In this document: positions 30,638-61,322 of the stretch, piece after piece | How positions within the stretch are numbered: position 1 is the first letter of the stretch | Layout of the letters: each line of letters starts with the position of its first letter | Program-made: the position numbers and the translations under genes | Notes under the pieces: model-generated | Databases searched by the model: none | The model's input: the letters and a program-made list of their open reading frames with translations, nothing else | Told to the model about the DNA's origin: nothing | Assembly: GCA_034521465.1 (NCBI GenBank) | Contig: JAXHMN010000012.1 | Span: 24,359 to 88,358 of the forward strand | Direction of reading: 5' to 3' | DNA from: Melioribacteraceae bacterium | GTDB lineage: Bacteria > Bacteroidota > Ignavibacteria > Ignavibacteriales > Melioribacteraceae | DNA: 64,000 bases

Positions 30638-31042
30638 TTATAATTTTTTTATCAAGTTGAGAATGTTTCTACCCTCTTTTCGCTCGTATGATATATCGTC
30701 GGTTTTTTGTTTTACAATATGAATTCCCAATCCGCCGATTTTTCTGTCTTCGAGTGATGCTTTAACATTTACTTCATTTTTTTTTAATGGATTAAATTCT
30801 TCTCCATCATCAATTGTTTGGATATTTATTGTATTGTTAGATTTTTCCAATACAATTTCAATTATATGCTTATCCTCATCGTCATATGCGTAATTGATAA
30901 TATTTGTAACAAGTTCATCAAGAATTAAATTCAATTCAAAGCTGGTCTTACTATCTAACCCATGCTCTTCACCGAACAGTTCTACAAACTCGGCAACTTT
31001 TTCCAAGTTCTCAATTCTATTTTGTATTGAAAGTTTTTTCAT
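30638..31042 (-). CDS. Anti-sigma regulatory factor, RsbW/SpoIIAB-like serine protein kinase (HATPase_c)
   Basis: 'LILDELVTNIINYAY' (N-box) and 'DDGEEFNP...GGLGIHIV' (G-boxes). Sits immediately upstream of the STAS gene. Confidence 0.8.
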   Translation of the reverse strand: MKKLSIQNRIENLEKVAEFVELFGEEHGLDSKTSFELNLILDELVTNIINYAYDDEDKHIIEIVLEKSNNTINIQTIDDGEEFNPLKKNEVNVKASLEDRKIGGLGIHIVKQKTDDISYERKEGRNILNLIKKL

Positions 31043-31289
31043 GAAAAATAAATATCGTTGTTGTAAATATATTTATTTTTATACAGATATATGTTTGTTT
31101 AGGATCAAGTTGATAACTGAATAAAAAGTAGATTAATCTATAATTGAAAAACTCAAGGAATGAAAAAAAATTATTCTCAATAATGGGGAATTTACGTATG
31201 GGTTAAGCCAGTCATTTAGAGATAACACCTAATTGAATGTTATTTATTATTATTTGTCTTTAGAAATATCTATATCTAATAGTTAGAAT

Positions 31290-31332
31290 TGTCAAAATAT
31301 TGACAGCAAACCTCTCACCTTCATCCTAAATT
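31290..31332 (+). promoter_or_regulatory. Palindromic operator TGTCAAAATATTGACA plus -10-like TAAATT (site P1)
   Basis: Palindrome 31290-31305, then 21 nt, then TAAATT 31327-31332. ATG of the downstream ORF is at 31370. Confidence 0.7.
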
Positions 31333-31369
31333 AGTTTTAGATTTTTCAATTACCCTAAAGGGAAACAGA

Positions 31370-31642
31370 ATGTCATTAAATTCAAAACAGAAAAAGGTTA
31401 TTTGGGCTGGATCATTAGTAGCCATTTTATCTTTAGTTGTTTGGTTCTTTACCGGTGGCGAAATATTTACTAAGACTCAAGTAATAGTTGAAAAGCATGA
31501 TGAACTTCTTGGTTCAACTTATAAAGAATGGCAGGATAAATTCATTCTTGGTTTAGACTATACTTTGGCATTCATTGCCGCAGTCTTTTTTATTTCGGTT
31601 ACTGCAATTATTTTATTGCGCGATAAGAAAAAAGAAAACTGA
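31370..31642 (+). CDS. Small two-TM membrane protein (hypothetical)
   Basis: 90 aa with two hydrophobic helices. AAAGGGA lies upstream of the ATG. First gene after operator P1. Confidence 0.4.
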   Translation: MSLNSKQKKVIWAGSLVAILSLVVWFFTGGEIFTKTQVIVEKHDELLGSTYKEWQDKFILGLDYTLAFIAAVFFISVTAIILLRDKKKEN

Positions 31643-31833
31643 ATAAAAGGATTTAATTATTACCTCCTTTTTTCAAATCGACCAATTGCCGACAATTTTA
31701 TAATAGAAAAATAGGCAGCCCACATATTGTCATCTTGATGGCAGTAAAAAATAAGTAGACTAAATATTTTAGTTACGGAAATGAATATGAAATTAACTTC
31801 GAAAAAAAATAAATTAATAATTGGAGGAAAGTT

Positions 31834-32391
31834 ATGTCACAATTCAAAATACACACAACAGAAACCGCACCGGAAGAATCAAAAGAATTGTTGCAAGGCG
31901 CAGAAAAGCAACTGGGATTTATCCCAAACTTATACGGAATAATGTCCGAAGCGCCTGCAGCATTAAACGCTTATAACGCCATTAGTCAAAATTTTGATTC
32001 ATCTTCGTTAAACTCAACGGAAAAGCAAGTTGTACTGCTTGCAACAAGTTTTGTTAATGAATGTCATTATTGTATGGCGGTACATTCAACGGTCGCACAA
32101 ATGCAGAAGATAGACGATGCAATTGTAAAGGCAATTAGAAACGGAGAAGCAATTGCCGATTCAAAATTAGAAGTACTGAGAAATTTTACTCAAACTGTTG
32201 TTGAAAAAAGAGGATGGATCTCGGAAGATGATGTTGAATCATTCTTATCTGCGGGATACACGAAAGCACAACTCTTGGAAGTGATTGTAGGAGTAGTTCA
32301 AAAGACTCTCAGCAATTACATTAACCATATTGTTAAAACTCCCCTCGATAAAGCATTCGAACCAAATAAGTGGGAAAAAGAAACAGTTTGA
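31834..32391 (+). CDS. Carboxymuconolactone decarboxylase / AhpD-like family protein
   Basis: GGAGG RBS. 'LLATSFVNECHYCMAVH' carries the CxxC motif of the AhpD-like fold. Confidence 0.85.
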   Translation: MSQFKIHTTETAPEESKELLQGAEKQLGFIPNLYGIMSEAPAALNAYNAISQNFDSSSLNSTEKQVVLLATSFVNECHYCMAVHSTVAQMQKIDDAIVKAIRNGEAIADSKLEVLRNFTQTVVEKRGWISEDDVESFLSAGYTKAQLLEVIVGVVQKTLSNYINHIVKTPLDKAFEPNKWEKETV

Positions 32392-32412
32392 AAAGTTTGT
32401 TTCCCAATTAAA

Positions 32413-32450
32413 CCTGCACAATTGTCAACTTATATTGTGCGGGTTTTTTT
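32413..32450 (+). terminator. Rho-independent terminator
   Basis: CCTGCACAAT (32413-32422) pairs with ATTGTGCGGG (32434-32443, one mismatch) and is followed by T7 (32444-32450). Confidence 0.8.
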
Positions 32451-32492
32451 GTTTCTTATCAGCTGTTAAGTGTTTTTCCAAAGTTTATCTAA

Positions 32493-32535
32493 TGTCAAAA
32501 TATTGACAGAAACCCCATCAACCGTCGCTTATCTT
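32493..32535 (+). promoter_or_regulatory. Palindromic operator TGTCAAAATATTGACA plus -10-like TATCTT (site P2)
   Basis: Palindrome 32493-32508, then 21 nt, then TATCTT 32530-32535. The yceI-like ATG is at 32598. Confidence 0.7.
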
Positions 32536-32597
32536 TAATTCAGAAATTAGAAAAAAAATCTATAACTCATCACAATAACAATCATAAAGGAGTAACA

Positions 32598-33227
32598 ATG
32601 AAAACATTTTCAAAACACGTAGTTTCTTTATTCTTACTATTAACCGTTGCACTCTCGGCTCAAACATTCACTGCTGATTCAGAGGACGGACGCAACCAAG
32701 CATCATTTACTTCCGATGCACCGTTTGAAAAAATTGTTGGTGTATCTAGCGGTTTAGATGCAACCGTGATGATCAACAAAGATGATATTACAAAATCGCC
32801 TAAAGGTATGGTAAAGGTTCCCATAGCAAATATAAAAACCGGTATCGATCTGAGAGATGAACACTTAAGAAGTAAAGATTGGTTGAATGCCGAAGAATAT
32901 CCGTATGCAGAGTTTCACTTAAAAGGAATTAAAAACCCCTCCTCTAAAAAATTAGTTGACGGGCAAAAAGTAAAAGCGACGCTCGTTGGTACATTTAGTG
33001 TACACGGGGTAAGCAAAGAAATTGAAGTTCCTGCTGAATTAACATATTTCGAAGAATCGGAAAGAACAAAAGCAAAAATGCCCGGTAATTTATTAGTTGC
33101 CAATGCAGATTTTAGTATCAAACTTTCTGACTTTGGAGTGGATGTACCTTCAATGGTAGTTGGAAAGGTAAGCGAAGAAGTTAAAATAACTACCAATTTT
33201 GTTGCAAGTGATGCAAATGGGGGATGA
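32598..33227 (+). CDS. YceI-family periplasmic (polyisoprenoid-binding-like) protein
   Basis: Signal peptide. 'SFTSDAPFEKIVGVS...IKTGIDLRDEHLRSKDWLNAEEYPYAEF...LVGTFSVHGVSKEI' is the YceI-like pattern. Confidence 0.85.
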   Translation: MKTFSKHVVSLFLLLTVALSAQTFTADSEDGRNQASFTSDAPFEKIVGVSSGLDATVMINKDDITKSPKGMVKVPIANIKTGIDLRDEHLRSKDWLNAEEYPYAEFHLKGIKNPSSKKLVDGQKVKATLVGTFSVHGVSKEIEVPAELTYFEESERTKAKMPGNLLVANADFSIKLSDFGVDVPSMVVGKVSEEVKITTNFVASDANGG

Positions 33228-33364
33228 ATCCTTGCGGAACTTGTAATCCTTGTGCTGCCGGAAACCCTTGCGAAATGAAGATGGAAAGCAAATGTAATCC
33301 TTGCTCAATGAAGAAAAGCAATCCTTGCAATCCGTGTGCGATGAAAAAAGATGGTAATTCATAA
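33224..33364 (+). CDS. 46-aa Cys-rich micro-protein with six N-P-C repeats
   Basis: Its ATG overlaps the yceI-like TGA (ATGA). Translation: MNPCGTCNPCAAGNPCEMKMESKCNPCSMKKSNPCNPCAMKKDGNS. The AAyCCnTGy units start at 33227, 33245, 33263, 33296, 33320 and 33329, all in one frame. Below the 60-aa cutoff of the ORF track. Confidence 0.5.
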   Translation: MNPCGTCNPCAAGNPCEMKMESKCNPCSMKKSNPCNPCAMKKDGNS

Positions 33365-33386
33365 AAAATTATAAAAAGCAATAAGA

Positions 33387-33482
33387 GGGTGACTCAAAAG
33401 TAAAGATATTGATATGGTTGGAACACAGATACCGCTAATTTTTACAGATTTTTTATTTGAATTTTACTTTTGAGACATCCCC
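33387..33482. repeat. Nested-palindrome intergenic repeat, copy E2
   Basis: CTCAAAAGTAAA (33393-33404) pairs perfectly with TTTACTTTTGAG (33463-33474), and the arms extend imperfectly (GGGTGA.../...ACATCCCC). The interior 'GAACACAGATACCGCTAATTTTTACAGATTTT' resembles 14831-14862. Confidence 0.65.
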
Positions 33483-33506
33483 GTCTTATTAAAATGGATT
33501 AAGAAA

Positions 33507-34187
33507 ATGAAAAGAAGACAATTTTTTAAAACCGGTTTTGTTTTGATTGCCGCCTTTGCGGCAAGCTCTAAATTGACGCTTGTTAACGCAGCAGAACAAA
33601 CTTCAAACTTTGTAAAAGATTATAAAGCAAAAATTCTAGAGATAATTAAAAATTTGAAAGCAGAAGGAACAAATCTGGTTACAAAAATAATGAACGAAAA
33701 GGAATATGAGTTTGATCCTTATACACACTATCCATACGATGGCGGTATTAAAGACGACTTAACCGGTTGCCAGTTATTTTTCCATGCTCACCGGGAAGAC
33801 GAATACGGACACTTTCATACATTCGCAACCGATGATGATGGAAAACTTGTTCATCTTGTTTTAATTTCTATGAATGAAAAGGGAGAGCTAATTGGACTTG
33901 CTACGGTTAATAGATGGGTGACCGGCGATAAATTTGTTAAAGCCGATAAATTAAAACAGCTTGCTTCTGATTTTTATATGGACCCTTCATTATATAAAGA
34001 TCAAAGGGTCATTCAATTTGTAAACAGCGTCTTCAAAGCATACCGCAACGAAATTGAAGCAATTTTTGACGAAAGGGATAAGTGGATAAATAATTATGCA
34101 AGAAAATACTACCGCGAACCATTTGAAGACAGAGATCACGAGATTCTCTCTCATAAAAAAGTTATTTTAGCTGATAACTCAAACTGA
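33507..34187 (+). CDS. Tat-signal exported protein (hypothetical)
   Basis: 'MKRRQFFKTGFVLIAAFAASS' is a twin-arginine signal. His-rich core 'FFHAHREDEYGHFHTF'. No family recognised. Confidence 0.5.
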   Translation: MKRRQFFKTGFVLIAAFAASSKLTLVNAAEQTSNFVKDYKAKILEIIKNLKAEGTNLVTKIMNEKEYEFDPYTHYPYDGGIKDDLTGCQLFFHAHREDEYGHFHTFATDDDGKLVHLVLISMNEKGELIGLATVNRWVTGDKFVKADKLKQLASDFYMDPSLYKDQRVIQFVNSVFKAYRNEIEAIFDERDKWINNYARKYYREPFEDRDHEILSHKKVILADNSN

Positions 34188-34479
34188 TCTGAAGCTATGT
34201 ATTAAACTGTCAATTGAGCTTCCCGCGATTGTAAATCTATTGGTTTTGAGTTGTTTGGTTTTATCAAAAGAAAAATTATGTAAAATAATGATCGGTTATA
34301 GTGAGTGCTATTATAACTTTAGTTACCTTACTTACTTTATATAGTTTTTCGTAATGTAATATTCAAAAAAAATCAGTTTGGTTTGGATTAAAAAATTGCC
34401 GCTATCTCCGGTTTATTCTTTAATAATAGTTTTGTCGTATTTATGCAAAGAGGTAAAAATTTGAAAAAGGAAGATTAGC

Positions 34480-35067
34480 ATGACAACAGCATCGTCAACA
34501 AGTGTATTATTCATTCCGGATATATCAGGGTTTTCAAAATTCGTTAATGATATGGAAATTCTTCACGGGCAAGAGATAACCGCTGAATTACTTGAAGAGA
34601 TAATTAATGCCGAGGAACTGGGATTTGAAATATCCGAAATCGAGGGAGACGCCGTACTTTTCTATAAAATTGGCGATCCAATTTCGATTGAGGAGATTTA
34701 TAACCAATCACTAAAAATTCTTCAGAGATTTCATAAGAAAAAATTGGAAGTTCAGGAAAAGCGTATCTGCGAATGTAACGCCTGCCAATCTGTTAATAAT
34801 TTAACACTCAAATTCATCCTTCATTTCGATAATATTGAATTGATTAACGTAAATCGATTTAAAAAACTTTACGGCAAAGGTGTGATTCTTGCTCATCGAT
34901 TGATGAAAAATGATGTTAAAGAAAAAGAGTATATAATATTTACTAAAAATTATCCCAACTCTGAAAAAACAAATAAAGAAATTTTTGAAGTCTGCCCGAT
35001 CAAACAGAACCTTGAAGGAATTGGAGATGTTGACTGCCAATATATTAAGCTGAATCTTCCAAACTAA
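34480..35067 (+). CDS. DUF2652-like protein (nucleotide cyclase-like fold)
   Basis: 'VLFIPDISGFSKFVNDMEILHGQEITAELLEEII...EIEGDAVLFYK' matches my recollection of the DUF2652 N-terminal pattern. Confidence 0.5.
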   Translation: MTTASSTSVLFIPDISGFSKFVNDMEILHGQEITAELLEEIINAEELGFEISEIEGDAVLFYKIGDPISIEEIYNQSLKILQRFHKKKLEVQEKRICECNACQSVNNLTLKFILHFDNIELINVNRFKKLYGKGVILAHRLMKNDVKEKEYIIFTKNYPNSEKTNKEIFEVCPIKQNLEGIGDVDCQYIKLNLPN

Positions 35068-35079
35068 ATAAACATAAAT

Positions 35080-37567
35080 ATGAATCCGATTAAAAAATAT
35101 TTCAATTGGCTGCAGAAAGATAATCCTACCGGCGAAGTAGAAAAGTATCCCGAAATTGATGAACATGGTGAAACATCTCTTAAGGGTGTTTACATTAGCG
35201 GTGATCTTACCGGCATTCCCTTATTAAAATTTGCGGCGGAAAACGGCAAGGAAGTTATTGATCGTTTTATGGCTGATGATGAATACAAAAAATTATTGAA
35301 GGAAAAATCATCCGAAGATGTCTATGATCTGATTATCATTGGCGCCGGTATTTCGGGCATATCTGCCGGACTGGAAGCGAAGAAGCACGATTTGAATTTT
35401 ACGATACTTGAGTCCTCCGAGAAGTTTCAAACAATTTGCAATTTTCCAAAAGGAAAACCGATATATGCCGAACCCGATGATCTTCACCAGAAAGCGGAAT
35501 TGAAAATCGATGACGGCACAAAGGAATCATTGCTCGATGATCTTCACTCACAAATACAAGGTACAGATCTTAATATTCATGAAGGTGTTGAAGTAAAAGA
35601 ACTCTCTCGTAAAGATAATTTAATAGAAATAAAAACGAATACTGAAACTTTTAAGTCGGCTAAGAGTTCTTCTGGCGATTGGTAAATCGGGCAATCCGCG
35701 TGAACTGAACGTACCGGGAAAAGATAAAGGAAAAGTCTTTAACAGGTTATTCGATCCTGAAGACGCCAAGGGAGAAAAAGTTTTGGTAGTGGGCGGAGGA
35801 GATTCGGCTCTTGAAACAGCAATTGCAACTTCGGAACATGCTGAATCAGTTACTTTCTCATACCGCGGTGACAGTTTCACCAGACCGAAAGAAAACAACA
35901 AAGAAAAATTAGAACAGCTTGTTAATGAAGGTAAAATTGATCTTCGTCTGGAAACAAATGTTAAAGAGATCAAAGATGATTCAGTAATTCTTGTTGATAA
36001 AGAGGGTAATGAAAAAGAATTTGAAAACACTGTCGTATTTACAATGCTCGGCCGCGAGCTGCCGGTAGAATTTTTTAAGCGAAGCGGAATTAAAATGGAA
36101 GGCGAGTTGTCGCTCACGGCAAAATTACAGTTTGCTCTTCTGTTACTCTTTTCCACCGTCCTCTATTTCGGAAAAAGCAGCGCTGATTTTTACGAAAGTT
36201 TTTTCGGTAAAGTCGATTCATGGGGAACAGTTTTTACTAGCATTTTCAGCGGAGAATTCTGGTATAAATTTATTTCACTTCCCGAAGTTCTCTTTTCCGC
36301 GTTGTTCTCGGATTCGGTTAGGATTTGGAACGTAACGAAGTATATTAATGCAACAATTGCCTACTTCTCGTTTATAGCATTTTTCCTGCTCGGAGTTTAC
36401 CTCCTATATAAATTTATACGGGATTATGCTCCCAAAATTAAATTAAACTGGCAGACATTCAAGTATGCGTATTTTATATCTCTCGGTATCTTCTTTGCAG
36501 TCATCTTTTTTGGCGGAAGATATTACGGTGTAGAGTTACTCGGAAAGTCGCAAGGATTTTGGTACACCGGTTTTTATTCGCTGACAATTTTATTATTCGG
36601 TCTCAGAAGGATGCATGTAAAACCTACGCGTTATATCAAACTTCAGACATGGACGTTAATCCTTATTCAAGCCCTTCCACTCTTTATATTACCCGAATTT
36701 ATTTTTCCTTTCTTGGGAAAAATAGGCGCGCTTGGCGGAGAAAACGGTTTCGTGTTTACTCAAGTTTTTCCTAAAGAAAGTTACTGGAGATCATACGGAT
36801 TTATTTTAGCTTGGCCTCTTAATTTTTATAATCTCTATAATTCCAATATCACAACTTTCTGGCTGGTCTTTAGTATCATTCAAACATTTGTGATTATTCC
36901 CTACATAGTTTATAGATGGGGCAAAGGCGCTTATTGCGGATGGATATGTTCATGCGGTGCTTTAGCGGAAACACTCGGCGATGAATATAGAACTCTTGCA
37001 CCACACGGACCAAAGGCGAAAAAATGGGAAAACTTTGGGCAGTGGGCGTTACTCGCAGCTTTTGTAATTACCGGGCTGAAATTAATTTCGGTTCTATATA
37101 ATATTCCAATTCCAATAATTAATGAAAAAGTTTCTTACGCAGCCGACTTTCTTCATAAATTCTATTATATCGGGATTGATGTAATCTTTGCCGGAGTGCT
37201 TGGCGTAGGCGTTTACTTTTTTATGAGCGGAAGAGTTTGGTGCCGTTTCGGATGCCCGCTTGCCGCTTGGATGCATATTGTAAATCGTTTTACACGTTAT
37301 AGAATATTTGCCGATAAGAAGAAATGTATCTCATGTAACATCTGTACGAAAGTTTGTCACATGGGAATTGATGTAATGAATTATGCAAACAAAGGTATCC
37401 CGATGAATGATGTTGAATGCGTCCGTTGTTCCGCATGCGTTGTTAATTGCCCGACCGATGTTCTATCATTTGGAAGTTTACCTAAAGCCGATCCCGATAA
37501 TGAACTATATAAAAAAATAGAAATACCTGTTCTTAATCATGATGATTGGAAAAGCGGATTAAGGTAA
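35080..37567 (+). CDS. FAD/NAD(P)-dependent pyridine-nucleotide-disulfide-type oxidoreductase fused to a polytopic membrane 4Fe-4S (polyferredoxin-like) domain; one apparent frameshift near 35655-35665
   Basis: 'YDLIIIGAGISGISAG' and (next frame) 'RVLLAIGKSGNPRELNVPGK...KVLVVGGGDSALE' are the two dinucleotide-binding motifs. ~8 TM helices follow. C-terminal 'CISCNICTKVC...CVRCSACVVNCP' are two 4Fe-4S ferredoxin motifs. Confidence 0.75.
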
Positions 37568-37570
37568 TCA

Positions 37571-38924
37571 ATGAGTGTTAAATATTCAGTTATTATTCCT
37601 ACATTAAATGAAGAACTATATCTAGAAAACACTCTTCAAAGCCTAAGTGGATTCTGTGAATTATGAGATAATAATTTCAGACGGGGGAAGCAACGATGAT
37701 ACTTCTAAAATTGCGGAAAAGTTTAATGCAAAAATCGTAAACTCTGAAGCCGGAAGAGGAATACAATTAAATAAAGGAATTGATGCGGCAAATGGTGAAA
37801 TACTTTGCTTTCTTCATGCCGACACTGCTTTGCCGGATAATGCTTTTGAATTATTAGAAGAATTTTTTCAGGATATTGAAAATAAAATATGCCGATTCAA
37901 ACTAGGTTTTGATGTCGATCATAGAGTGCTAAACTGTTACGGATATTTTTCTAAATTCGATACGCTTTTTACAAGATTCGGCGACACGTTTATAGCGGCA
38001 AGAAATGATTTCGTTGAGGAAATCGGGAGTTTTCCGAACTGGAAAAATTTTGAAGATGTTAAATTTCTCCGGGAAGCATCAAAGAGAAGCAAAGTATTTG
38101 TTCTGGATCAGGAGGTTGTTTCCTCTGCAAGAACGTTTGTTAAATATGGCTTGGTTGGGCAGCAGTTAATCAGTATTAATTATTTCGTAAAGTACCTTCT
38201 TGGTCAGAGGAAATTTATTAAAGAAGGTAGTTATTACAAAAGAAAGATGAAAAAAGTAACTGCGTCAATAATATTGTTTGTTAAATATCCGGTTGAAGGA
38301 AATGTAAAAACCAGGTTGGCTAAAACAATTGGAAATGCAAAAGCCGCAAAGATTTATTCATTGCTCGCGGAAAATATAATAACAAACATTAAAAAAATGA
38401 CGAATACCTACAATTATCTATTTTACTCTAATTCTTCGGAAAAGGAGAAAATCAAAAAGTGGATAAAAGGAAATTTCTTTTACGCGCCGCAGAAAGGAAA
38501 CGGACTCGGTGAAAGAATGAGTAATGCATTCAGACTTGTATTCGGTCATGGTGCAAAAAAAGTTTTGATAATCGGAACAGATATTCCCGGACTATCAACT
38601 GAAATTATTAAGGAAGCAGTTACAAAATTAGATGAATACGATGCTGTAATCGGACCATCGCCCGACGGTGGTTATTATCTTTTGGGAATGAAAAGATTTA
38701 TTCCCGAACTCTTTGAAAATATTACTTACAGCACCGATTCAGTTTTTGAAGAGACAATCAAAAAAATAAAGAATGAAAATCTTACTTATTCTCTTCTAAA
38801 CACAAAAGAAGATATTGATACGGAAGATGAATTGAAAAATTGGTTAAATAATTCCAAAGACACACAACTTAAAAAGGAAATATCTGAAATATACTTTCAG
38901 AATTATGAAAGGAATCTGGTTTGA
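37571..38924 (+). CDS. Fusion of a GT2 glycosyltransferase (TIGR04283-like) with a DUF2064 nucleotidyl-transferase-like domain (TIGR04282-like); apparent frameshift near 37645-37655
   Basis: 'YSVIIPTLNEE' ... 'EIIISDGGSNDDT...GRGIQLNKG...ILCFLHADTALP...VVSSARTF', then with no stop 'ASIILFVKYPVEGNVKTRLA...IIGTDIPGL...VIGPSPDGGYYLLG'. Confidence 0.75.
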
Positions 38925-39685
38925 GAAAATATTTTATATCAGTTATTGTAATTATATTATTTTATACTAATTCTTATTCGCAAGATCACCAACTCTTTAC
39001 CGAAATTCTTCAAGATTATGTGAAGTACGGATTAGTCGATTATAAAAATTTGGAAGATGACAAAAGACTTGCCCAATATCTCGATCAACTTTCTGTTGTT
39101 AATCCCGGTGATTTATCAAAAAAAGAACAACTAGCATTTTGGATTAATGTTTACAATGCTTTTACACTTAAAATTATTTGCGATAATTATCCTTTGGGAA
39201 GTATTACCGATCTTCATACCGGCGGAAGAATTATTGGACATATTCTTGGGCAGACGGTTTGGGACAAAGAGTATATTAAAATTAACGGCAGCGAGTATAA
39301 TCTAAATGAAATAGAACATGAAATATTAAGAAAAATGGATGAACCACGAATTCATTTTGCAATTGTCTGTGCTTCCATAAGCTGCCCCGAACTTAGAAAT
39401 GAAGCTTTCGAAGCAGACAAACTTGAAATTCAATTAGAAGAACAGACGCAAAGATTTATAAACGATCCTTCGCGCAACTCTTTTGATTTGGGAAATCGTG
39501 AAGCTGAAATATCCGAGATTTTCAACTGGTTTGATGAAGATTTCGGTGATTCGGAAGAAGAAGTTTTAATTTTTATATCAGATTATCTTACCGATGAAAT
39601 TGCGTCAGAGATAAAAGATAATTTCAGTGAATGGGATATATCTTATATGGATTATGATTGGGGATTGAATGAATATAAAGATTGA
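38921..39685 (+). CDS. DUF547-domain protein
   Basis: 'EQLAFWINVYNAFTLKII...RIHFAIVCASISCPELRNEAF' is the DUF547 signature. Overlaps the upstream stop by 4 nt. Confidence 0.8.
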   Translation: MRKYFISVIVIILFYTNSYSQDHQLFTEILQDYVKYGLVDYKNLEDDKRLAQYLDQLSVVNPGDLSKKEQLAFWINVYNAFTLKIICDNYPLGSITDLHTGGRIIGHILGQTVWDKEYIKINGSEYNLNEIEHEILRKMDEPRIHFAIVCASISCPELRNEAFEADKLEIQLEEQTQRFINDPSRNSFDLGNREAEISEIFNWFDEDFGDSEEEVLIFISDYLTDEIASEIKDNFSEWDISYMDYDWGLNEYKD

Positions 39686-39756
39686 TTATCAAAAACTATT
39701 TCAATCTGTCTATAAATTGACACAATAATCTTTCAAAGAATCATAAGTTTCAAATT

Positions 39757-40485
39757 ATGTTAACAGCAACTTACAGAACAAATCGTGCAATAGTATTATT
39801 TATTAAGAACGAAAAGATAAGAAACCCAAAAATCTTTAGTTCACGGGTAGCTTATGATCTGTTCAATACGAAAATTGAAAAATTGGTTGCTCAAGTAAAA
39901 GATAAAATAGATGTCGATATAATTCTCTGTTCCGATGATCCTTCTTTAATTAAATCAAATAAGTTTATTAGACAAACCGGTAAATCATTTGACGAAAAAT
40001 TTAATAATGCAATTGACAAAACGTTTCAATTAGGTTACGATGAAATAATAATCACCGGTAATGATTCTCCGGATCTTACCTCTCAACATATAATTGAATC
40101 CTTCGTCAATATTTCCAATGAAAAAATTGTTGTCGGTCCCTCGTACGACGGCGGTATCTATCTTCTTGGATTGGCAAAAAAATCATTTGAATCAAAGATA
40201 AAAGCGAGATGGAATACTTCTCATGTTAAAAATGATATTTTAAATGTATTCCGTGATAAAGAAGTATTATTACTGGATCATCTTTACGATATAGATAATG
40301 AAAAAGATCTTATCAGTTGGTTTTCAACAAAATCAAAGTCCGCAATATTATTTCAAAAGTTAGTTAAAGCGGAGACTGCAGTAAAACAAAAAGACCGTTT
40401 AACACACCACACAAATTCAACCGAACAAAACATTTTCAGAATCCACACACAAAAAGCTCCGCCCCATATAATTTCTTTCGTGTAA
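39757..40485 (+). CDS. Second DUF2064-like protein
   Basis: 'AIVLFIKNEK...IIITGNDSPDLTSQHI...VVGPSYDGGIYLLGL' parallels the second half of 37571-38924. Confidence 0.55.
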   Translation: MLTATYRTNRAIVLFIKNEKIRNPKIFSSRVAYDLFNTKIEKLVAQVKDKIDVDIILCSDDPSLIKSNKFIRQTGKSFDEKFNNAIDKTFQLGYDEIIITGNDSPDLTSQHIIESFVNISNEKIVVGPSYDGGIYLLGLAKKSFESKIKARWNTSHVKNDILNVFRDKEVLLLDHLYDIDNEKDLISWFSTKSKSAILFQKLVKAETAVKQKDRLTHHTNSTEQNIFRIHTQKAPPHIISFV

Positions 40486-43016: not shown

Positions 43017-43910
43017 ATGAACATAACTCATCCCAAACTAAAAATAGATTCACTCGACAATTTGTGGTTTCAAGTAAGCGGTACAATATGCAATATCGCT
43101 TGCAAACACTGCTTTAATAATTCGAGTCCGACTAACAGAAATTTCGGATTTCTCACACTTGCAGAATGCGAAAGCTATTTAGAAGAATCAGTTGAATTGG
43201 GAGTAAAAGAATATTACTTCACCGGTGGCGAGCCATTTGCGAACAAAGAAATGATTCAAATTATTGAGAAAACTTTGGAATACGGACCCGTAACCGTATT
43301 GACAAACGGAATGCTAATCAACGAAGAGAAAGCAAAACGTTTGGCGAAGATAGAAAGTAAAACGATCTTCTCATTAGAAATGCGCGTAAGTCTCGACGGT
43401 TTCACAGAAGAAATGAACGATGAAATTCGAGGAAAAGGTGTTTTCAAAAAGACGATGATCGGTGTGGAAAATCTTTATCGTCACGGATTTTTACCGATTA
43501 TAACAGTAACTAAAACTTGGAATGATTCCGAAGACGAAAAAGTAATGAACGGCTTTCGCGATCTGCTTATTTCCCACGGTTATCTTCGTCCACGAATTAA
43601 AATTCTGCCATCATTAAAAATCGGAAAAGAAGCAGTTCGGACAAAAGGTTATGATAAGTATGAATACATAACCGAGGAAATGATGAATGGTTTCGATGAA
43701 GATCAGTTGCTCTGCTCAAACAGCCGTTTGGTCACGAGCAAAGGTGTTTATGTCTGCCCAATATTAATTGAATCGGACGATGCAAAAGTTGGTGATGATC
43801 TTCCGGGTTCGATGAAACCTTACGAGCTAAAACATCAAGCATGTTACACTTGCTATCTTTACGGCGCTATCTGTTCTAACTTTTCAACAAGCGCAAGGGA
43901 GGAATTATGA
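43017..43910 (+). CDS. Radical SAM enzyme with a C-terminal Cys-rich (SPASM/twitch-like) region
   Basis: CxxxCxxC in 'GTICNIACKHCFN', 'YFTGGEPF', 'RGKGVFKKT'. C-terminal 'CSNSRLVTSKGVYVCP...HQACYTCYLYGAICSN'. Confidence 0.8.
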   Translation: MNITHPKLKIDSLDNLWFQVSGTICNIACKHCFNNSSPTNRNFGFLTLAECESYLEESVELGVKEYYFTGGEPFANKEMIQIIEKTLEYGPVTVLTNGMLINEEKAKRLAKIESKTIFSLEMRVSLDGFTEEMNDEIRGKGVFKKTMIGVENLYRHGFLPIITVTKTWNDSEDEKVMNGFRDLLISHGYLRPRIKILPSLKIGKEAVRTKGYDKYEYITEEMMNGFDEDQLLCSNSRLVTSKGVYVCPILIESDDAKVGDDLPGSMKPYELKHQACYTCYLYGAICSNFSTSAREEL

Positions 43911-46461: not shown

Positions 46462-47796
46462 TCATTTTTCATCAAAGCCCTCTGAGATTCTCGGGATTGC
46501 AATAAATGAATTCCGGGAATCTTTTTTATTTAGAATGAACCAAAATTCATAGAGCAGCAAAATTATGACAGGAATATACTCGATCAATAAAATAATAGTA
46601 TTTTCATCCCAAACATTTTCCAACTGATAAATCATTACCGTATAAAATGTAATCGAGATAAGTGAGATATAGCTTATTCCACTTAATTTAGGATTAACAA
46701 CCAATAGAACAATGAGCCATGCAGCATACCAAGGATGAACGACAGGTGAGCAAAGAAGAAAAAACATCAATGAATAGAAAAGTGACGAGAAAACATCTTT
46801 ATTGTATCGAAGCAGCACTAGGTAAATGAGTATAAACAGAATAAGCAGGATAAACCGAATAACAAATGTGTCATTCAAAAAGACTGTTAACAAATTGAAC
46901 GCAGCGCCATTAAAACTCCAATGCCGTGAATAATTTATTAATGTCTCAAATGGATTTGCGGTAAACGAAAAAGGTATAAAACTTACAGCCAGTAAAATAA
47001 TTGGAATAACAAGCCATTTTAATTTGTCTTTCATTTCCTTTTCGTAAAAAAAGAAAATTGGAATTGCGATCATAAACGTCGGCTTAACTATTAACGAAGC
47101 GCCGAGAAATAAAGCGGCAAATATTTTTTGCTCTTTAAAAAAGTAAATTGAATAGAGGAATAAAGCCATACCAAGTATATCAATGTGAGCATCAATGAAG
47201 AATTGATAAAAAACCAAAGGACTCAAAACATAAAGCAAAACATATTTATTATTGATTTGATTTTTTTTAAGAAGCAAAAAGAAACCGAAGGTCAATAAAA
47301 TATCCGATAAAATCATTATGACTTTCAAACCCCAAATACTCTCACCGCCAATTAAATAAACAAATGCAAATACAGCTTGCGAAAGTGGAAAATAAATTGT
47401 TTTTATATCAGGGTAAGTAACTTCTTTAGGAAGTAATTCGGAATGTAAGTGACTTAACGATTCGGAGTTGGGTGGAAACTGAAAGGGATTAATACCGTTG
47501 ACTAAAACTTTACCATCCCATAAATATCTGTAATAATCATCAGACCCAACCGGTAATATCTCCATCGAAAATATCTTAAAGAGAAAAAAAAATGTCGTGA
47601 TCCAAAAGATATATTTTAATTCAACTTCTACTTTGTAAAGGATTAATGCGCACACGAGATAAAGTATTGAAGCAGATGAAATAGTAAAAAAGTAACTCTC
47701 GATACTCCGGTCGATGAAAACGAACCATGCATAATTGAGAATTATTATTGCGGCAAAAATGAATAGCAGATATTTTTTATTTAACAGCAATTTCAT
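46462..47796 (-). CDS. Polytopic GT-C-type glycosyltransferase-like membrane protein (DUF2029/MptB-like)
   Basis: ~12 TM helices. The first loop 'PVGSDDYYRYLWDGKVLVNGINPFQFPP' resembles the S-x-D-x3-Y...G-x-NPY loop of polyprenol-phosphate-dependent mannosyltransferases. Confidence 0.55.
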   Translation of the reverse strand: MKLLLNKKYLLFIFAAIIILNYAWFVFIDRSIESYFFTISSASILYLVCALILYKVEVELKYIFWITTFFFLFKIFSMEILPVGSDDYYRYLWDGKVLVNGINPFQFPPNSESLSHLHSELLPKEVTYPDIKTIYFPLSQAVFAFVYLIGGESIWGLKVIMILSDILLTFGFFLLLKKNQINNKYVLLYVLSPLVFYQFFIDAHIDILGMALFLYSIYFFKEQKIFAALFLGASLIVKPTFMIAIPIFFFYEKEMKDKLKWLVIPIILLAVSFIPFSFTANPFETLINYSRHWSFNGAAFNLLTVFLNDTFVIRFILLILFILIYLVLLRYNKDVFSSLFYSLMFFLLCSPVVHPWYAAWLIVLLVVNPKLSGISYISLISITFYTVMIYQLENVWDENTIILLIEYIPVIILLLYEFWFILNKKDSRNSFIAIPRISEGFDEK

Positions 47797-52391: not shown

Positions 52392-54025
52392 ATGACTGAA
52401 ACAAAAAAAAGAATTGAGGTTGCAAAATTTAGCGAACTCGAAGACCGAAAACCGACTTATGCGCTTGCCGAAAATGTTGATTTGGTTGTGATCAAATATG
52501 AAGAAGAAGTTTCTGTTTTATACGGAAGGTGTCTCCATCGCGGAGCGCTTTTATCCGACGGATTTGTTGACGGTGACAACTTAATCTGCGGTGTTCACTA
52601 TTGGGATTACAGATACGACACAGGAATAAGCGAGTACAACAATGAAGAACAATTAAAAAAATTTAAGTCGTGGATCGATAAAGAAAATGATGCTGTTTAC
52701 GTTGATGAAGATGAAATTAGACAATGGGAAAAAGATAATCCTCAACCATACGATCGTGAATCATATCATGGGCTTTATGCAGACATACACGGTGCCGAAG
52801 AAGAACCTTTTAATAATTATATCCAACAATTAGCGAATGGCGGAATTAAAGCTGTTGGTAAACACGGAGTTAATTCTGCAATGGGAGTTCCGTATAACGA
52901 ACTTCCAAAATGGAATGACATTCAAATTTTAACCGGACAACTCACAAACAAACCGCTGTTAGATGAAGACGATGTTTCCACTGAATTAGTTATAGGTCCA
53001 AGAGCAAAAAAACCGATGAAATTAAAGATCCCGATTTTTGTGAGTGATATGAGCTTTGGCGCTTTAAGTGAGGAAGCTAAAATTGCCTTGGCTAAGGGAG
53101 CAGAATTAGCCGGAACAGGGATTTGTTCGGGTGAAGGAGGAATGCTGCCGGAAGAACAGCAGAGCAATTCAAACGTATTTTTATGAATTGGCCTCCGCTA
53201 AATTCGGATGGAATATTGAAAACGTAAAGAACGTTCAAGCATTTCACTTTAAAGGGGGACAGGGAGCAAAAACCGGTACCGGCGGTCATCTCCCCGGCGA
53301 AAAAGTTAAAGGTAAAATTGCAGAAGTACGCGGACTTGAAGAAGGTAAAGATGCAATTAGTCCTTCTACATTTCCGGATTTAACCACTCCTGCCGATTTT
53401 AAAAAGCTTGCCGATGAAGTGCGAGAAATATCCGGCGGTATTCCAATCGGTTTCAAACTTTCTGCACAGCATATTGAAGCAGATATTGATTTTGCATTAG
53501 AAGCAAGTGCCGATTATATAATTCTTGATGGGCGCGGCGGTGGAACAGGTTCTGCTCCAAATATATTTAAGAACAATATTTCTGTCCCTACAATTCCCGC
53601 TTTAGCCCGTGCAAGAAAACATCTTGATAAAGTTGGCGCGGAAGATGTAACATTAATTATCACCGGCGGACTGAGAACAGAATCCGATTTTGTTAAAGCT
53701 TTAGCTCTCGGTGCAGACGGAATTGCAATTGCAAATTCTGCTATTCAGGCAATCGGTTGTTTGGGAATGCGCGCCTGCCATACTGAATAATTGCCCGGTG
53801 GGGATTGCAACTCAAAGAGAAGATTTACGCTCGCGAATAATTATCGATCAATCATCGAAACAATTACAAAATTATCTTGAAGCAACAACCGAATTAATGA
53901 AAGTGCTGTCAAGAGCCTGCGGACATGATAGTTTAAGCAAGTTTTCTATCGATGATTTAACAACGTTTAAAAAAGACATGGCTGAATTAAGCGGTATTAA
54001 ATTTGGCGGAGTTATAAATGAATAA
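52392..54025 (+). CDS. Rieske [2Fe-2S] domain fused to a glutamate synthase-related FMN domain (GltB domain 2-like); two apparent frameshifts (about 53165-53180 and about 53775-53790)
   Basis: 'CLHRGALLSDG...CGVHYWDY' (Rieske); 'VSDMSFGALSEEAK...GEGGMLPEE', 'KGGQGAKTGTGGHLPG', 'DGRGGGTGSAP', 'GGLRTESDFVKALALGADGIAIA', 'NNCPVGIATQ' are spread over three frames. Confidence 0.8.
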
Positions 54026-55880: not shown

Positions 55881-56571
55881 TCAAGAAATCAGTTTTTTTA
55901 ACTCATCCATTTTATTTACAATTAATTTGTTCCTGTCAAAATCGATAATACCTTTTTCCCGCAGATCGGTTAAAAGATAATTTACGGTTTGGCGGGAACA
56001 TGCCGTTAATTCTCCGATATTTTGATGCTTCAGAAACGGTTTAACAAATATTTGATCGCCTATTTTCTTTCCGTTCTTTTCGGCATATCTAATGATAAAA
56101 GAAATGATTCTTTGGTTGGCATCTTTGAATATTAAATCCTCAACACGTTCGGAAAAGTTTTTGAGCTTCAATCCAATCAATTTAGTTAAGCTTAAGTTTA
56201 ATGCGGGATTCTTTTCAACAAACTCGGCAAAATCATTTTTATTAATTGCACAGATTAATGACTGCTCTACGGTTATTGCATAATCAGTTCGTTCGCCTTC
56301 ATCGAAGTAAGACATTTCGCCAAAGATTTCACCGGGATTAATAATTGCAATTATTTTTTCACTTCCGTCGGAAAGATATTTAGATATTTTCACTCTACCT
56401 TTCTTGAGAAAATATATAGTCTCGGAAGGTTCGCTCGCAAAATAAATAGGAATGTTTTTATCCGTGGTGCTGTCTCTAACGAGTTTGTTCAATCTTCATC
56501 ATTTCATCTTTATTAAGTGTGCTGAATAAGTTGAAGTTCTCTAAATACCAAAGTTTAGTTTTCTCTGCCAT
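55881..56571 (-). CDS. Crp/Fnr-family transcriptional regulator; apparent frameshift near 56490-56497
   Basis: cNMP-binding-like 'IYFLKKGRVKISK...GEIFGE' and HTH 'NIGELTACSRQTVNYLLTDLREKGII'. The N-terminal 'MAEKTKLWYLENFNLFSTLNKDEMMKI' is readable from the ATG at 56571 in the adjacent frame. Confidence 0.8.
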
Positions 56572-56750
56572 TGCCTTTCCCGCTTGTATGATATTTCTAA
56601 AGATAGAAAAATATTCAAGTTATATAAATAAGAAAGGGTAAAGATCATAAAAATAATCATATGTCAAGCGGCACATCTATAGGTGGCGAGAGTTATGAAC
56701 CAAGTTATTTGAGCACATTATACCTTTCTGTTACTAGTAATTCAAAAAAT

Positions 56751-57019
56751 GAGTCCGCTCCAAAAGCCAAAAAATGCATACTGTCATGAGGCTGTCTCAA
56801 AACCCTTAGTTTTCTCGATACATTCCGACATACTACGTCGGAACACTCGAAAACCGTCCAAATTCAACGGTCATTGAGTAGTCCGATGCTTTTCGGACGT
56901 ATCGAAATGACCTTTTGAGACAGCCTCATCTCTAAAGTAAGTGAGGTTTTGAGATTCCCGCTCGTTTCGGAGACGAAGTCTAAGGATTTTCACTGGAATG
57001 ACCTTTCTGGAGTGGATTC
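56751..57019. repeat. Composite nested-palindrome intergenic element, copy E3
   Basis: Outer imperfect arms are GAGTCCGCTCCAAAAG (56751-56766) and CTTTCTGGAGTGGATTC (57003-57019). A perfect 17-bp stem ATGAGGCTGTCTCAAAA (56786-56802) / TTTTGAGACAGCCTCAT (56913-56929) encloses a 7-bp stem and three hairpins. A GAGATTCC...GGAATGAC unit follows at 56951-57002. Confidence 0.75.
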
Positions 57020-57692: not shown

Positions 57693-58916
57693 AAACCATA
57701 CTTATATACACTTCGCCCGCACGCGGGCACCTTTATCCTATGATGGATATAGCAATTGAGTTAAAAAAAAGAGGGGATAATGTAATTATTCAAACATTAG
57801 CCGGTGAAAAAGAGCGAGTAGAAAATGAAGGGATTCATCATATCTCAATATCTTCTGAAATTGAGTCTCTGCCGCTGAAGGATTACAAAGAAAGTACACC
57901 TGTGTCACAATTCCGTTCGGCATTCAATACTTGGTTAAAAAGGGCGCCGCACGAGATCAAAGATTTAACCGAAAGTTATGAACGTATTAATCCCGATTTA
58001 CTAATTGTGGATGTAAATACTTGGGGCGCGGGAGCTTTTGCGGAGGCGCAGTCAAAACCCTGGGCGATGTTCATGCCTTATTGTCTGCCGATTCCTTCAA
58101 GAGAAACACCTGCTTTCGGTCCCGGATTTCCGCCGCCTACAAATCTCTTGCACCGGCTACGCGATAAAGTTGTGAATAATTTGATACAAAGGGCTGTGCG
58201 CGGACAAGTAAAAAAACTGAATAAGCTACGAACAAGTATGGGTGTTTCTTTATTGAATAAATATCAAGATATCTTTGCACGTCCCGACTTAGTCCTATAC
58301 AGAACGGCTGAACCGTTTGACTATCCACGAAAAAACTGGCCCGAAAATATATTACAAATCGGTCCCGGACTTTGGTCGCCTTCAGCAGAAGACCCAAATT
58401 GGATTGATGATTTACCTTCCCCGCGGATTTTAATAAGTGTTTCAACAGAAGCACAGGAAGACAGCGCAATTATTAAAACCGCTCTCAACTCTTTGGCGAA
58501 TGAAAAAGTTAGCTTAATTGTAACAACAGCTGCGTTTGATCCCAAAGATTTTGAAGCGCCTCATGAGCATGTACGGATTACTAAGTTTTTATCTCATGCA
58601 GAAATAATACACAAGATGGATCTTTTGGTAACACATGGAGGTATGGGCGCTACTCAACGGGCGTTAGCTGCAGGGGTTCCTGTTTGTGTCATTCCGTTCG
58701 GGCGAGATCAAAGCGAGACAGCACGGAGAGCTAGAAGTCAGCGGTTCGGGGATAATGCTTCCCAAAAATAAACTGAATGAACAAGGATTAAAAAAAGCAG
58801 TCAAAGATGCACTAAAGCGAAAACCCGGTGCAGAAAAAATTGCTCAAGCTTTTAAAAATGCCGGCGGCGCTAAAAGAGCTGTGAAAGCATTAGATGGTTT
58901 AGTACAAAATTCTTGA
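57689..58916 (+). CDS. GT1-family (MGT/UDP-glycosyltransferase-like) glycosyltransferase; apparent frameshift near 58725-58735
   Basis: 'ILIYTSPARGHLYPMMDIAIELKKRG' and 'THGGMGATQRALAAGVPVCVIPFGRDQSETARR|LEVSGSGIML'. The C-terminus continues in ORF 58686-58916. Confidence 0.8.
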
Positions 58917-59240
58917 CAGACCTCAAAGGCACAAGCGAGCAATTGTAGCTCAAATTGATTCGTACAATTTAACCGCCTCGCAGGTCTACTGCTGTCGACT
59001 TGAGCTTTGATACGAACACTGTAATAAGCATACAGCTTCTATGGATTCGTCGCTGATACATTTTCAGCTGGCTTTCGGATTGATCGAAGGAAGGTTAATA
59101 GGTATATATCAGAATATTGGGATGAAAGACTTGGCCATAAATTATTCGATGATTCCTATTCATGGAAAACTGAAAAAGTACTAAAGCAGTTAACTTCTAT
59201 GTCTTAATAGAACTTTTCTTTTTTTAGATTGCAAGACGTG

Positions 59241-60542
59241 GGACACAAATACAGCAAGTTCGAAGTGCCCGCATATAACGGCGGCTTGTTCAAAGAAAGA
59301 CGAAATTTTAGATAACGTAAAGATTGACGATGAAATTCTATTAGATGATGCGCTTAAACTTTCCACTTACGATTACAGCACCGAAGTTGACGTAAACATT
59401 CTCGGTCACATTTTTGAACACAGCATAAGCGAGATTGAAGAGATAACCGCTGAGCTCGAAGGCGAAGAAAGAGATGCAAGTAAATCTAAACGGAAGAAAG
59501 AAGGCGTCTTTTACACACCGAAATATATTACAAAGTACATTGTCGAAAACACGATCGGCGAACTCTGCGAAACGAAAAAGAAAGAACTTCATCTCGATGA
59601 AATTGATGAAGAAATTTTAGAGAACAGCAAAACCGCAAAAGGAAAACTTACAAAGAAAGCCGAAACACTTTTTAAGAATCTTGAAACTTACCGCGAGTAT
59701 ATTTTATCGCTAAAAATTTTAGACCCGGCGTGCGGAAGCGGTGCTTTCTTGAATCGCATCGTGGTTGATCCCGGTCATCAATTTGGACAACTGGTAATGA
59801 AAGGCAACGAATGTTAATACAGAAGTTATTTTTTCTATGTACCAAGTGGCTAACGACTAGAGCTTGATTGTATTCTCTAACCACACCCCCGCTACAAAAA
59901 AGAAAGTAAATGATGCTGTTAATTTCTATAGAACAGCGGCATGACAGAAGTCTACTTAGATGGGAGCCTTCTCAGTATGTAGCTGATGCATTAAACTTTC
60001 TTAACGAAGGATACTTCCAGAAATGTTGCCAAAGGTTATCTCAAGCAAAGACTTCGAGTTGTGGCGACCAGTATGAAGCTATGAATTCCAAGCGTTGTGG
60101 AAGAAGATTGTTAATAACTCGCGATGATTAATGTTCAAGAAGACGAGATATACAATTTAATTGTGTAAGGAATACTGATCTGAGTGTAGCGTTTTCATAA
60201 AGCTCCCAAAGAATTTTACTACGATTGGAAATTGTCAGACTACTTATCTCGTAAATGGGAAACACGTATCAATATGAACTGAGGAGAAAGAGTCTGTTGC
60301 ATAAGTCACCTTATTGCCGTCCACTTAAGAGTGTTTGTATGCAGAGGTAATCATTTGCCCCGACTTTTAGAAGCTGTGTGAGAACGAATGGGAATGAATA
60401 CTTTAACGAGCACAAGAGAAAATTTTAGAACCGCAAGGCCAAATCAACCAAACTGACCGCGAGATAGACCAACTCGTTTACGAACTCTACGGCTTAACAG
60501 CAAGCGGAGATAAAGACAGTTGAGGAGAGCGTAATACGTTAG
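59241..60542 (+). pseudogene. Remnant of a type IIG restriction-modification / N6-adenine DNA methyltransferase gene (Eco57I/MmeI/PglX-like), truncated and internally deleted
   Basis: 'PAYNGGLF', then after a frameshift 'VNILGHIFEHSISEIEE...KRKKEGVFYTPKYITKYIVENTIGELC...LKILDPACGSGAFLN' (motif I, ending about 59757), where similarity stops. The typical C-terminus 'DREIDQLVYELYGLT..EIKTVEES' sits at about 60455-60542. Only ~650 nt of stop-ridden sequence lies between. Confidence 0.7.
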
Positions 60543-60556
60543 ATCCCACTCTCCTT

Positions 60557-60934: not shown

Positions 60935-61285
60935 TTAAAAGAAGCAGCGCATTCTTTTTGAAATACGCTTTGCGAAAGTCGAGCGACAGTTTTAAGCCTC
61001 TTCTGGCTTTTCAAGTCGAAGATCCACTTTGGGACTAGTCGTAGTTTTGGTTTTCATCGGGTGAAGCCACGGGATCAGACTTATGCAACAGACCTCTGGT
61101 GGGCATCTGTGTGCTAATTTTTACTTTAAGTTCTCCATTCTTCTTAAGTTGACAATATGGCTTACCAAGGCAAGGGAATAAGAAACAGGTGATTTGGGAT
61201 AAAGATCAGTATTGGGAAATAATTATGAGAACATCAATAAAAAAGCAATAGGGAGAACATATGAGTAAGGCGGTCATAAATAGTA

Positions 61286-61313: not shown

Positions 61314-61322
61314 CAGAAAAAA

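Follow-up and report, generated by a model that had tools for sequence, protein, structure and literature searches.

Described systems closest to the locus

Proteins of the YceI family are periplasmic lipid- or polyisoprenoid-binding proteins, and those with solved structures (Escherichia coli YceI, 1Y0G; Thermus TT1927b, 1WUB; Campylobacter Cj0420, 2FGS and 5W2X; Pseudomonas PA0423, 7BWL) share a signal peptide and an eight-stranded lipocalin-like barrel. Here we consider a yceI-like gene of a Melioribacteraceae bacterium (assembly GCA_034521465.1; Bacteroidota, Ignavibacteria) that abuts a small open reading frame (ORF) built of Asn-Pro-Cys (NPC) units, a Cys-rich extension that none of the solved proteins covers. 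The window that was analysed is a whole stretch of 64,000 nucleotides of contig JAXHMN010000012.1 (positions 24,359 to 88,358, forward strand), to which all coordinates refer. The start codon of the ORF (33224-33226) shares bases with the stop codon TGA of the yceI-like gene (33225-33227), and this four-base ATGA overlap is what the locus has in common with translationally coupled small ORFs; an original prediction, made from the sequence alone, had accordingly described an unannotated, translationally coupled micro-ORF of 46 codons. The locus differs from such pairs in that the overlap appears to be made by a frameshift, the ATG being internal to the longer gene, or absent, in relatives. We consider, with a probability of about 0.85, that the ORF is the tail of the YceI-like protein, detached from it by an assembly error, and that this tail is a thiol-rich module.

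The tail may also be compared with described thiol proteins. MerP and other HMA-type binders of periplasmic Hg(II) or Cu(I) resemble it in their location and in their CxxC thiol pairs, but MerP folds as a ferredoxin-like domain that has a single CxxC; the tail, by contrast, is predicted to be disordered, contains three CxxC pairs and matches no HMA model; its beginning, G-M-N-P-C-x-x-C, is reminiscent of the GMTCxxC of HMA domains, which is a lead only. Metallothioneins of the SmtA/BmtA type and Csp1, a Cys-lined copper storage protein that is exported, likewise are dense in Cys, with a thiolate cluster as the presumed ligand; however, metallothioneins are cytoplasmic stand-alone proteins and Csp1 is a folded four-helix bundle, whereas the tail is the appendage of a lipid-binding barrel and matches no family. 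The GGCGG 'swinging arm' of SoxY is, like the tail, a flexible C-terminal Cys arm on a periplasmic beta-sandwich or barrel carrier, and NPC repeats also flank SoxA/TsdA domains, but SoxY carries just one Cys, in a fixed motif, and is partnered by SoxZ and SoxAX, none of which is present here.

The NPC stretch and its relatives

The ORF encodes MNPCGTCNPCAAGNPCEMKMESKCNPCSMKKSNPCNPCAMKKDGNS, a product of 46 residues with eight Cys and six NPC units, and ends at TAA 33362-33364. Matches to AAYCCNTGY start at 33227, 33245, 33263, 33296, 33320 and 33329 (spacings of 18, 18, 33, 24 and 9 nt); half of the twelve matches of the 64-kb window fall within these 111 nt, all on the forward strand and in a single frame, and the other six are isolated singletons; for the whole window 7.07 +/- 2.67 matches would be expected by chance. 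The cluster is real, local and coding, and is not a dispersed DNA element. Antisense ORFs at the site (33150-33362 and 33190-33381) are low-complexity shadows. On all these points (composition, overlap, positions of the units, coding nature of the repeat, low complexity of the antisense frames) the original prediction was accurate, and it had itself named a dispersed DNA element as the finding that would speak against it.

Using the yceI protein to scan one genome per species, we collected nine loci with 68-89% identity, all of them of Melioribacteraceae or Ignavibacteria. In all eight of those that reach the 3' end of the gene (L001-L008) the NPC stretch lies in the YceI frame, a conserved ...NFVASDAN(G/S)G motif running into it without a stop, and two further loci, L010 and L011, carrying the closest relative, also have the tail in frame, which makes ten loci of ten. 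A protein search with the read-through sequence gave 599 homologues, the best 120 of which were inspected: 118 are YceI proteins of 213-294 residues with a Cys-rich tail, and the sole untailed full-length entry among the 120 is the window's own 209-residue product. Tailed YceI proteins among the matches belong to Ignavibacteria and Melioribacteraceae only. A search with the 46-residue peptide alone, in a word-indexed protein collection, found no stand-alone homologue, and an exact-sequence look-up of the 209-residue product found nothing on record.

The junction can be read base by base. Two homologues, P0001 (94% identical) and P0002 (90%), are exactly 255 residues long and read ...SDANGGMNPCGTCNPC... 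across it (DANGGMNPC). The window has AAT GGG GGA TGA at this place; with one extra G it would read AAT GGG GGG ATG AAT CCT TGC, that is N-G-G-M-N-P-C. The corresponding codons are GCC GGG GGG ATG in L006 and GGC GGG ATG in L004, both in frame, TCC GGT/GGG ATG in L001 and L002, and GGA AGT ATG in L003, and many relatives have G-N-P-C or N-N-P-C in place of the Met. Since the ORF stands in the YceI frame in relatives, the 'micro-ORF' almost certainly represents the last 46 codons of yceI, that is, the C-terminal tail of the YceI-like protein, and ATG 33224, judged from these alignments, is an internal Met codon of the gene. The ATGA overlap would exist because the G run is one nucleotide short, a deficit not shared by near-identical contigs. 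With one G restored in the G5 run, 32598-33364 would encode a secreted protein of 255 residues, comprising a signal peptide, a YceI barrel, a short Gly-rich linker (DANGG) and a disordered, Lys/Met-rich NPC tail of about 45 residues.

Protein anatomy and selection

The protein matches Pfam PF04264 (YceI) over residues 42-203 with 90.3 bits against a gathering cut-off of 23.7, but stays far below the cut-off of the E. coli YceI equivalog NCBIfam NF002994 (43.2 bits against 232). Matches found by phmmer to the solved relatives 2FGS/5W2X, 1WUB, 1Y0G and 7BWL all stop at query residue 203. An AlphaFold2 model of P0001, built from 54 homologues, has an N-terminal hydrophobic helix at residues 2-18, which by eye is a signal peptide, and a beta-barrel at 21-204 with a predicted local distance difference test score (pLDDT) mostly of 80-95; the tail (211-255) has a pLDDT below 50 and no secondary structure, and is thus predicted to be disordered. 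Pfam and NCBIfam contain no family that matches the tail alone at E <= 1, and P0001 matches only YceI.

Tail positions conserved in at least 90% of sequences are N211, P212 and C213, C216, C233, N234, P235 and C236, K239, and C244, N245, P246 and C247, the conserved Cys forming three CxxC pairs within a Lys/Met-rich linker. Over all pairs of loci the ratio of non-synonymous to synonymous differences (pN/pS) of the tail is 0.05-0.46; between the window and L010 there are four synonymous changes and one non-synonymous, and twelve codon spellings of N-P-C are in use across relatives, with synonymous variation at the codons of all three residues. This pattern of substitution indicates purifying selection on the tail at the level of the protein and not of the DNA.

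Origin of the split

Assembled contigs of public sequencing runs were compared with the window. Those of two sediment metagenomes (X2 and X4, about 97-98% identical) have one extra G behind 33218, G6 against the G5 of the window, and so carry the fused gene; two salt-pan runs (X1 and X10) gave low-depth contigs about 99-100% identical to the window. Besides yceI, at least eight single-base frameshifts lie in conserved genes of the window, hence at least nine in 64 kb (Table 1), and position 58731 is listed alongside these sites. At 53171, 56495 and 62584 the X1 contigs are without the extra base of the window, one of these contigs being 817 nt long with a single mismatch to it, and at 54253 the same holds for X10, so that four of the frameshifts are contradicted by contigs of the same population. 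The frameshifts other than that of yceI are not in homopolymers. The assembly seems to carry residual indel errors, and ORF-level oddities in this window therefore need an indel check. With about nine frameshifts in this stretch, and same-population contigs disagreeing at four of the sites, the split of yceI is very probably a single-base assembly or sequencing error.

Some points weigh against this reading. The X1 and X10 contigs leave 33104-33231 uncovered, and G5 in the strain itself is neither confirmed nor refuted by them; the X1 contigs have indels of their own at 35131 and 52403, hence are not error-free; and the comparison rests on assembled contigs, not on raw reads. A real and recent mutation of the strain is accordingly the first rival to be weighed: it would leave a tailless YceI, with tail codons that are either weakly translated by ATGA termination-reinitiation, as a cytoplasmic Cys-rich peptide, or a decaying remnant. 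The window does read G5 at a site where the population's own contigs, by not covering it, do not contradict it, and the neighbouring Pyr_redox/NapH-like gene of the same cluster is also broken, which could mean that the cluster is decaying. We nevertheless hold such a mutation to be improbable, as the further frameshifts are spread across unrelated genes and, with four contradicted, fit error and not selection on one operon, and the tail is undecayed in its differences to L010. Reinitiation would moreover have to do without a properly spaced Shine-Dalgarno sequence, GGGGG directly abutting ATG 33224 (AGGAG-like motifs do precede the yceI orthologues, as in the window), and a peptide detached from the barrel would lose the signal peptide that carries the tail to the periplasm.

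The same lack of a ribosome-binding site bears on an independent, conserved, translationally coupled 46-codon gene behind yceI. The overlap and the intact ORF of striking composition had suggested it, but a search behind yceI homologues, as the original prediction had advised, recovers a conserved reading frame but no separate ORF at any of the ten loci, and an in-frame tail in 118 of the 120 best homologues, and the stand-alone NPC peptides found by HMMER (see below) all bear their own signal peptides and none stands beside yceI; this part of the prediction has to be given up, and we regard a micro-ORF as very improbable. Much the same can be said of programmed ribosomal frameshifting, or of slipped-strand phase variation, by which the G run would toggle between tailed and untailed YceI. 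Here the break does lie in a homopolymer, with G5 and G6 both present among close relatives, but the run is absent from L001-L005 and L008, five or six G make a short tract, and a general error process would cover all the frameshifts of the window, including those outside homopolymers; a switch of this kind is highly implausible. A DNA-level element, either a binding-site array or a dispersed repeat, could be suspected from a 9-nt unit that occurs six times in 111 nt, and deserves next to no credence when the units all face the same way in a single frame, show no dispersal across the window, and keep their amino acids through twelve codon spellings. The tail detached by error remains the reading that we follow below.

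NPC repeats on other secreted proteins

Using the 46-residue tail in a HMMER scan of 1.84 billion representative sequences, we obtained 30 matches at E <= 1e-3: four repeats of an unrelated kind and, for the remainder, secreted proteins with NPC(NPC)A[AM]KK runs. These carriers (P0121-P0148) comprise small SoxA/TsdA-type haem cytochromes flanked by NPC repeats, 'YHS domain-containing (seleno)proteins' of NF041384, one membrane protein, and peptides of 67-110 residues with signal or lipoprotein signals that are rich in Cys, Met, His and Lys. They have the same Asn-Pro-Cys unit as the YceI tail, with A/S/M/K spacers and always behind a signal peptide, but sit on other carrier domains, with the repeats often N-terminal or on both sides. 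Common descent of such low-complexity repeats cannot be shown from their sequences. No Pfam or NCBIfam model covers the NPC repeat and full-text literature searches found no description of it, nor anything relevant on Cys-rich YceI tails or on the DUF and TIGR families of the neighbourhood.

DUF6969, mer or ArsS-like genes recur as neighbours of these proteins. In L012 an ArsS-like radical SAM gene (with DUF3641) and a methyltransferase gene precede an NPC peptide, behind which come a SoxA/TsdA cytochrome and a multihaem cytochrome. L013 and L017 have an NPC-cytochrome with FGE-sulfatase, DUF6969 and DUF302, the DUF6969 gene lying one or two genes from the cytochrome, and L013 also a YeeE-type sulfur transporter; in L018 an FGE-sulfatase gene is followed by an NPC-YHS gene. 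The NPC-cytochrome of L014-L016 stands with an MtrC-like multihaem cytochrome, a type also found near NPC proteins in L012 and L020, and in L020 a run of HMA, merR, merF and merA genes leads directly to an NPC-cytochrome. The gene contexts of L019 and L022 were uninformative.

Gene neighbourhood of the tailed yceI

The features of the window that concern the gene are collected in Table 1, together with the frameshift sites.

Table 1. Coordinates of the yceI-like gene, its surroundings and the frameshift sites of the window
Feature	Position	Strand	Remarks
AhpD/CMD-like peroxidase-related protein	31834..32391	+	TIGR01926 71.7 bits (below cut-off 81.8); ahpD_dom 30.6 (cut-off 27.8); Pfam CMD
16-bp palindrome TGTCAAAATATTGACA	32493..32508		TGTCAA-N4-TTGACA; about 90 nt 5' of the yceI-like start
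Shine-Dalgarno sequence AAGGAG of the yceI-like gene	32587..32592	+	5 nt before ATG (-11 to -6); read from sequence
yceI-like gene as in the window	32598..33227	+	209 aa + TGA; signal peptide and YceI beta-barrel; premature end ...VASDANGG-stop
G5 homopolymer	33219..33223	+	Site of the 1-nt deficit between YceI frame and tail
Cys-rich NPC tail, almost certainly the true YceI C-terminus	33224..33364	+	46 codons + TAA; in frame in relatives
Imperfect long inverted repeat in the tail-DUF6969 spacer	33380..33487		25-nt arms, 80% complementary; RNA fold -26.5 kcal/mol, z = -2.74
DUF6969 protein with twin-arginine (RRQFF) signal	33507..34187	+	Pfam PF22308, 137 bits
Frameshifts	near 7450 and 7550		PAS histidine kinase gene, broken twice
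Frameshift	~35660		828-aa Pyr_redox/NapH-like gene split; intact in L010 and X2-X4
Frameshifts	53171-53175 and 53784-53785		Rieske/glutamate-synthase-like (Rieske-GltS) gene in three pieces
Frameshift	~54255		DUF5996 gene
Frameshift	~56494		Crp/Fnr regulator gene
Frameshift	~62584		PepF-like M3 peptidase gene

In Ignavibacteria the core gene order consists of a small membrane ORF, an AhpD/CMD-like gene, the tailed yceI and a DUF6969 gene with a twin-arginine signal; next there is usually a SelL-related redoxin, then a histidine kinase, a second AhpD-like gene and a Crp/Fnr regulator. A CMD homologue lies upstream of yceI in L001, L002, L006, L007, L010 and L011, and DUF6969 directly 3' of it in every locus with a downstream flank. 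No PDB entry matched the DUF6969 protein by sequence, and for its AlphaFold2 model, although a good one (pLDDT 86.7), Foldseek gave nothing better than E = 0.18. Two loci, L005 (1840-4844) and L008 (1726-4747), have merR-merT(P)-merA immediately beside the tailed yceI, their MerA scoring 521 bits against the TIGR02053 cut-off of 454, and in L009 (3146-4708) merR-merA stands beside a truncated yceI remnant.

Further downstream, the window and L010 depart from this order: their cluster goes on with DUF2652, an Fe-S membrane fusion of YpdA-like/NapH-like type, a glycosyltransferase fusion (TIGR04283+TIGR04282), DUF547, DUF2064, a porin and a radical SAM gene. The interval 37647-40485 contains the glycosyltransferase fusion, which bears the family name 'arsenosugar biosynthesis glycosyltransferase' (TIGR04282 210 bits against a cut-off of 134), together with DUF547 and a second DUF2064/TIGR04282-like gene; the 'arsenosugar' names of TIGR04282 and TIGR04283 may not describe the chemistry here and are not taken as evidence of arsenic. 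The nearby radical SAM gene (43017-43910) is not ArsS, scoring 54.9 bits where the cut-off is 300, and the cluster showed no ArsM. It has Pfam Radical_SAM and Fer4_12 matches only, with all named maturase models far below cut-off, and is unlinked to yceI in the other genomes; the connection which the original prediction had tentatively drawn between a radical SAM/SPASM-like enzyme and the peptide is not supported. We likewise rejected a radical-SAM precursor of a ribosomally synthesised and post-translationally modified peptide: the gene is 10 kb off, without SPASM and not syntenic, and the stretch is a protein tail and not a leader-core peptide.

The palindrome TGTCAA-N4-TTGACA has five copies in the window (31290, 32493, 45466, 47808 and 50069), each before genes: orf90/CMD, yceI, a 306-aa ORF, the divergent pair of 46462-47796 and DUF3179, and a MetA-pathway-like outer-membrane gene followed by DUF3179. 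The copy 5' of yceI is conserved in L010, L005 and L008, and is probably the operator that the original prediction called P2. A Crp/Fnr-family gene is found at 55881-56571, and a gene of this family neighbours yceI in L001, L008 and L009; the palindrome is probably the operator of the Crp/Fnr-type regulator at 55881-56571, and yceI appears to be part of a thiol-redox/metal(loid) regulon marked by it. A scan for promoter and terminator consensus sequences around yceI was uninformative.

Between the tail and DUF6969, the right arm of the inverted repeat (33444-33477, about 34 nt) is all that contigs of X3, X4 and X10 match here, their flanks being unrelated; many metagenome contigs match it in this way, and on these matches it is a dispersed repeat of about 34 nt in related genomes and metagenomes. 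Within the window the arm is single, and it matches nothing in Rfam. Rfam searches over 31000-35500 gave chance-level matches only, and a whole-window Rfam and tRNA scan found nothing.

Possible functions of the tail

With chances somewhat short of even, we propose by analogy that the tail is a soft metal or metalloid ligand. This is suggested because of the mer, ArsS/ArsM-like and YHS contexts of NPC proteins and the Cys-, Met- and His-rich composition of the stand-alone NPC peptides. In the periplasm the tail would form a flexible thiolate array capturing thiophilic species such as Hg(II), As(III) or Cu(I), or alternatively would carry sulfur or selenium adducts, and it would act beside the YceI barrel and its constant partner, the DUF6969 protein exported by the twin-arginine route. 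The original prediction had offered a thiolate chelator of metals or metalloids, which is reasonable in view of the neighbouring mer and ArsS/ArsM-like genes; its comparison to metallothioneins finds no counterpart in matches to metallothionein or HMA models. The proposal also has to face that no metal-binding family model matches the tail, that the window contains no mer genes, that the yceI promoter has a Crp/Fnr-like palindrome and not an evident MerR operator, and that CxxC pairs in the periplasm could instead be disulfides, or redox or sulfur-carrier sites.

This last point leads to the main functional rival, rather unlikely in our estimation, in which the tail is a substrate or carrier of Cys chemistry and not a metal ligand. 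It may be imagined as a SoxY-like swinging arm with persulfide, selenide or thioarsenic adducts, for which the fusion of NPC repeats to SoxA/TsdA-type cytochrome domains could speak; as a multi-site (C-x-P-x) substrate of a Cys-modifying enzyme of the FGE-sulfatase type, genes for which adjoin NPC-repeat proteins in L013, L017 and L018; or as a redox CxPC array reduced by the neighbouring disulfide-reductase/NapH-like membrane protein, AhpD-like proteins, a SelL-related redoxin and the YpdA-like/NapH-like fusion all being encoded among the neighbours of yceI. C-N-P-C resembles the C-G-P-C of thioredoxin and also the opening CxPx of the FGE motif CxPxR. Against the FGE form it may be said that no FGE-sulfatase gene was found beside yceI in the Ignavibacteria loci examined, and that C-N-P-C-[AS] fits CxPx but is without the Arg of C-x-P-x-R.

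Returning to the soft-ligand proposal, its widest version is more doubtful than the ligand role by itself: NPC repeats may be a widespread, undescribed periplasmic 'thiolate array', placed on YceI, on SoxA/TsdA-type cytochromes, on YHS (seleno)proteins and on bare lipopeptides, and used with DUF6969 (in some lineages with FGE-sulfatase-like proteins) to trap, hand over or transform extracytoplasmic Hg, As, Se and other soft metal(loid)s. At the mer-linked loci (L005, L008, L009 and L020), where the likeness to MerP extends to adjacent mer genes, it might be an alternative to MerP.

Other features of the window

About 24.6 kb of the window (6547-31167), with genes for sensor kinases, a SpoIIE-type phosphatase with anti-sigma-factor and antagonist genes, and ABC transport, are absent from L010, whose flanks (98% identical on the left, 90% on the right) join directly; this is either an insertion in the window genome or a deletion in L010. 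At 56718-57019, contigs of X10, X3 and X4 have 26 nt in place of the 302 nt of the window, a stretch that reaches 4-6 times the local depth, and 60540-61013 has about 10 times the local depth; both are probably small multi-copy mobile elements (miniature inverted-repeat transposable elements or insertion sequence fragments). The 2.5 kb of 58771-61323 contain no ORF with a start codon of more than 83 aa and have almost no coverage in related metagenomes. Within them, 59194-59814 is an open stretch of 207 codons with N6-adenine methyltransferase motifs (FYTP..., ILDPACGSGAFL), and so resembles a restriction-modification gene that has decayed or is heavily frameshifted.

Implications

The case calls for caution, in that a single missing base, very probably an error of an assembly rich in such errors, produced a striking 'micro-ORF' that the sequences of relatives were enough to resolve; the gene would be annotated as one 255-residue protein of the YceI family. 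The NPC tail itself is real and strongly conserved, an undescribed variant of the family, and exemplifies a broader, uncharacterised module of secreted Cys repeats. Its unit is also found on secreted proteins that are otherwise unrelated and are encoded next to mercury-resistance, arsenic-methylation-type, sulfur-cytochrome and DUF6969/FGE-like genes. If the tail is a periplasmic ligand of soft metals or metalloids, it would be a new component of bacterial Hg, As and Se handling, and would offer a role that can be tested for DUF6969 and for a clade of YceI proteins.

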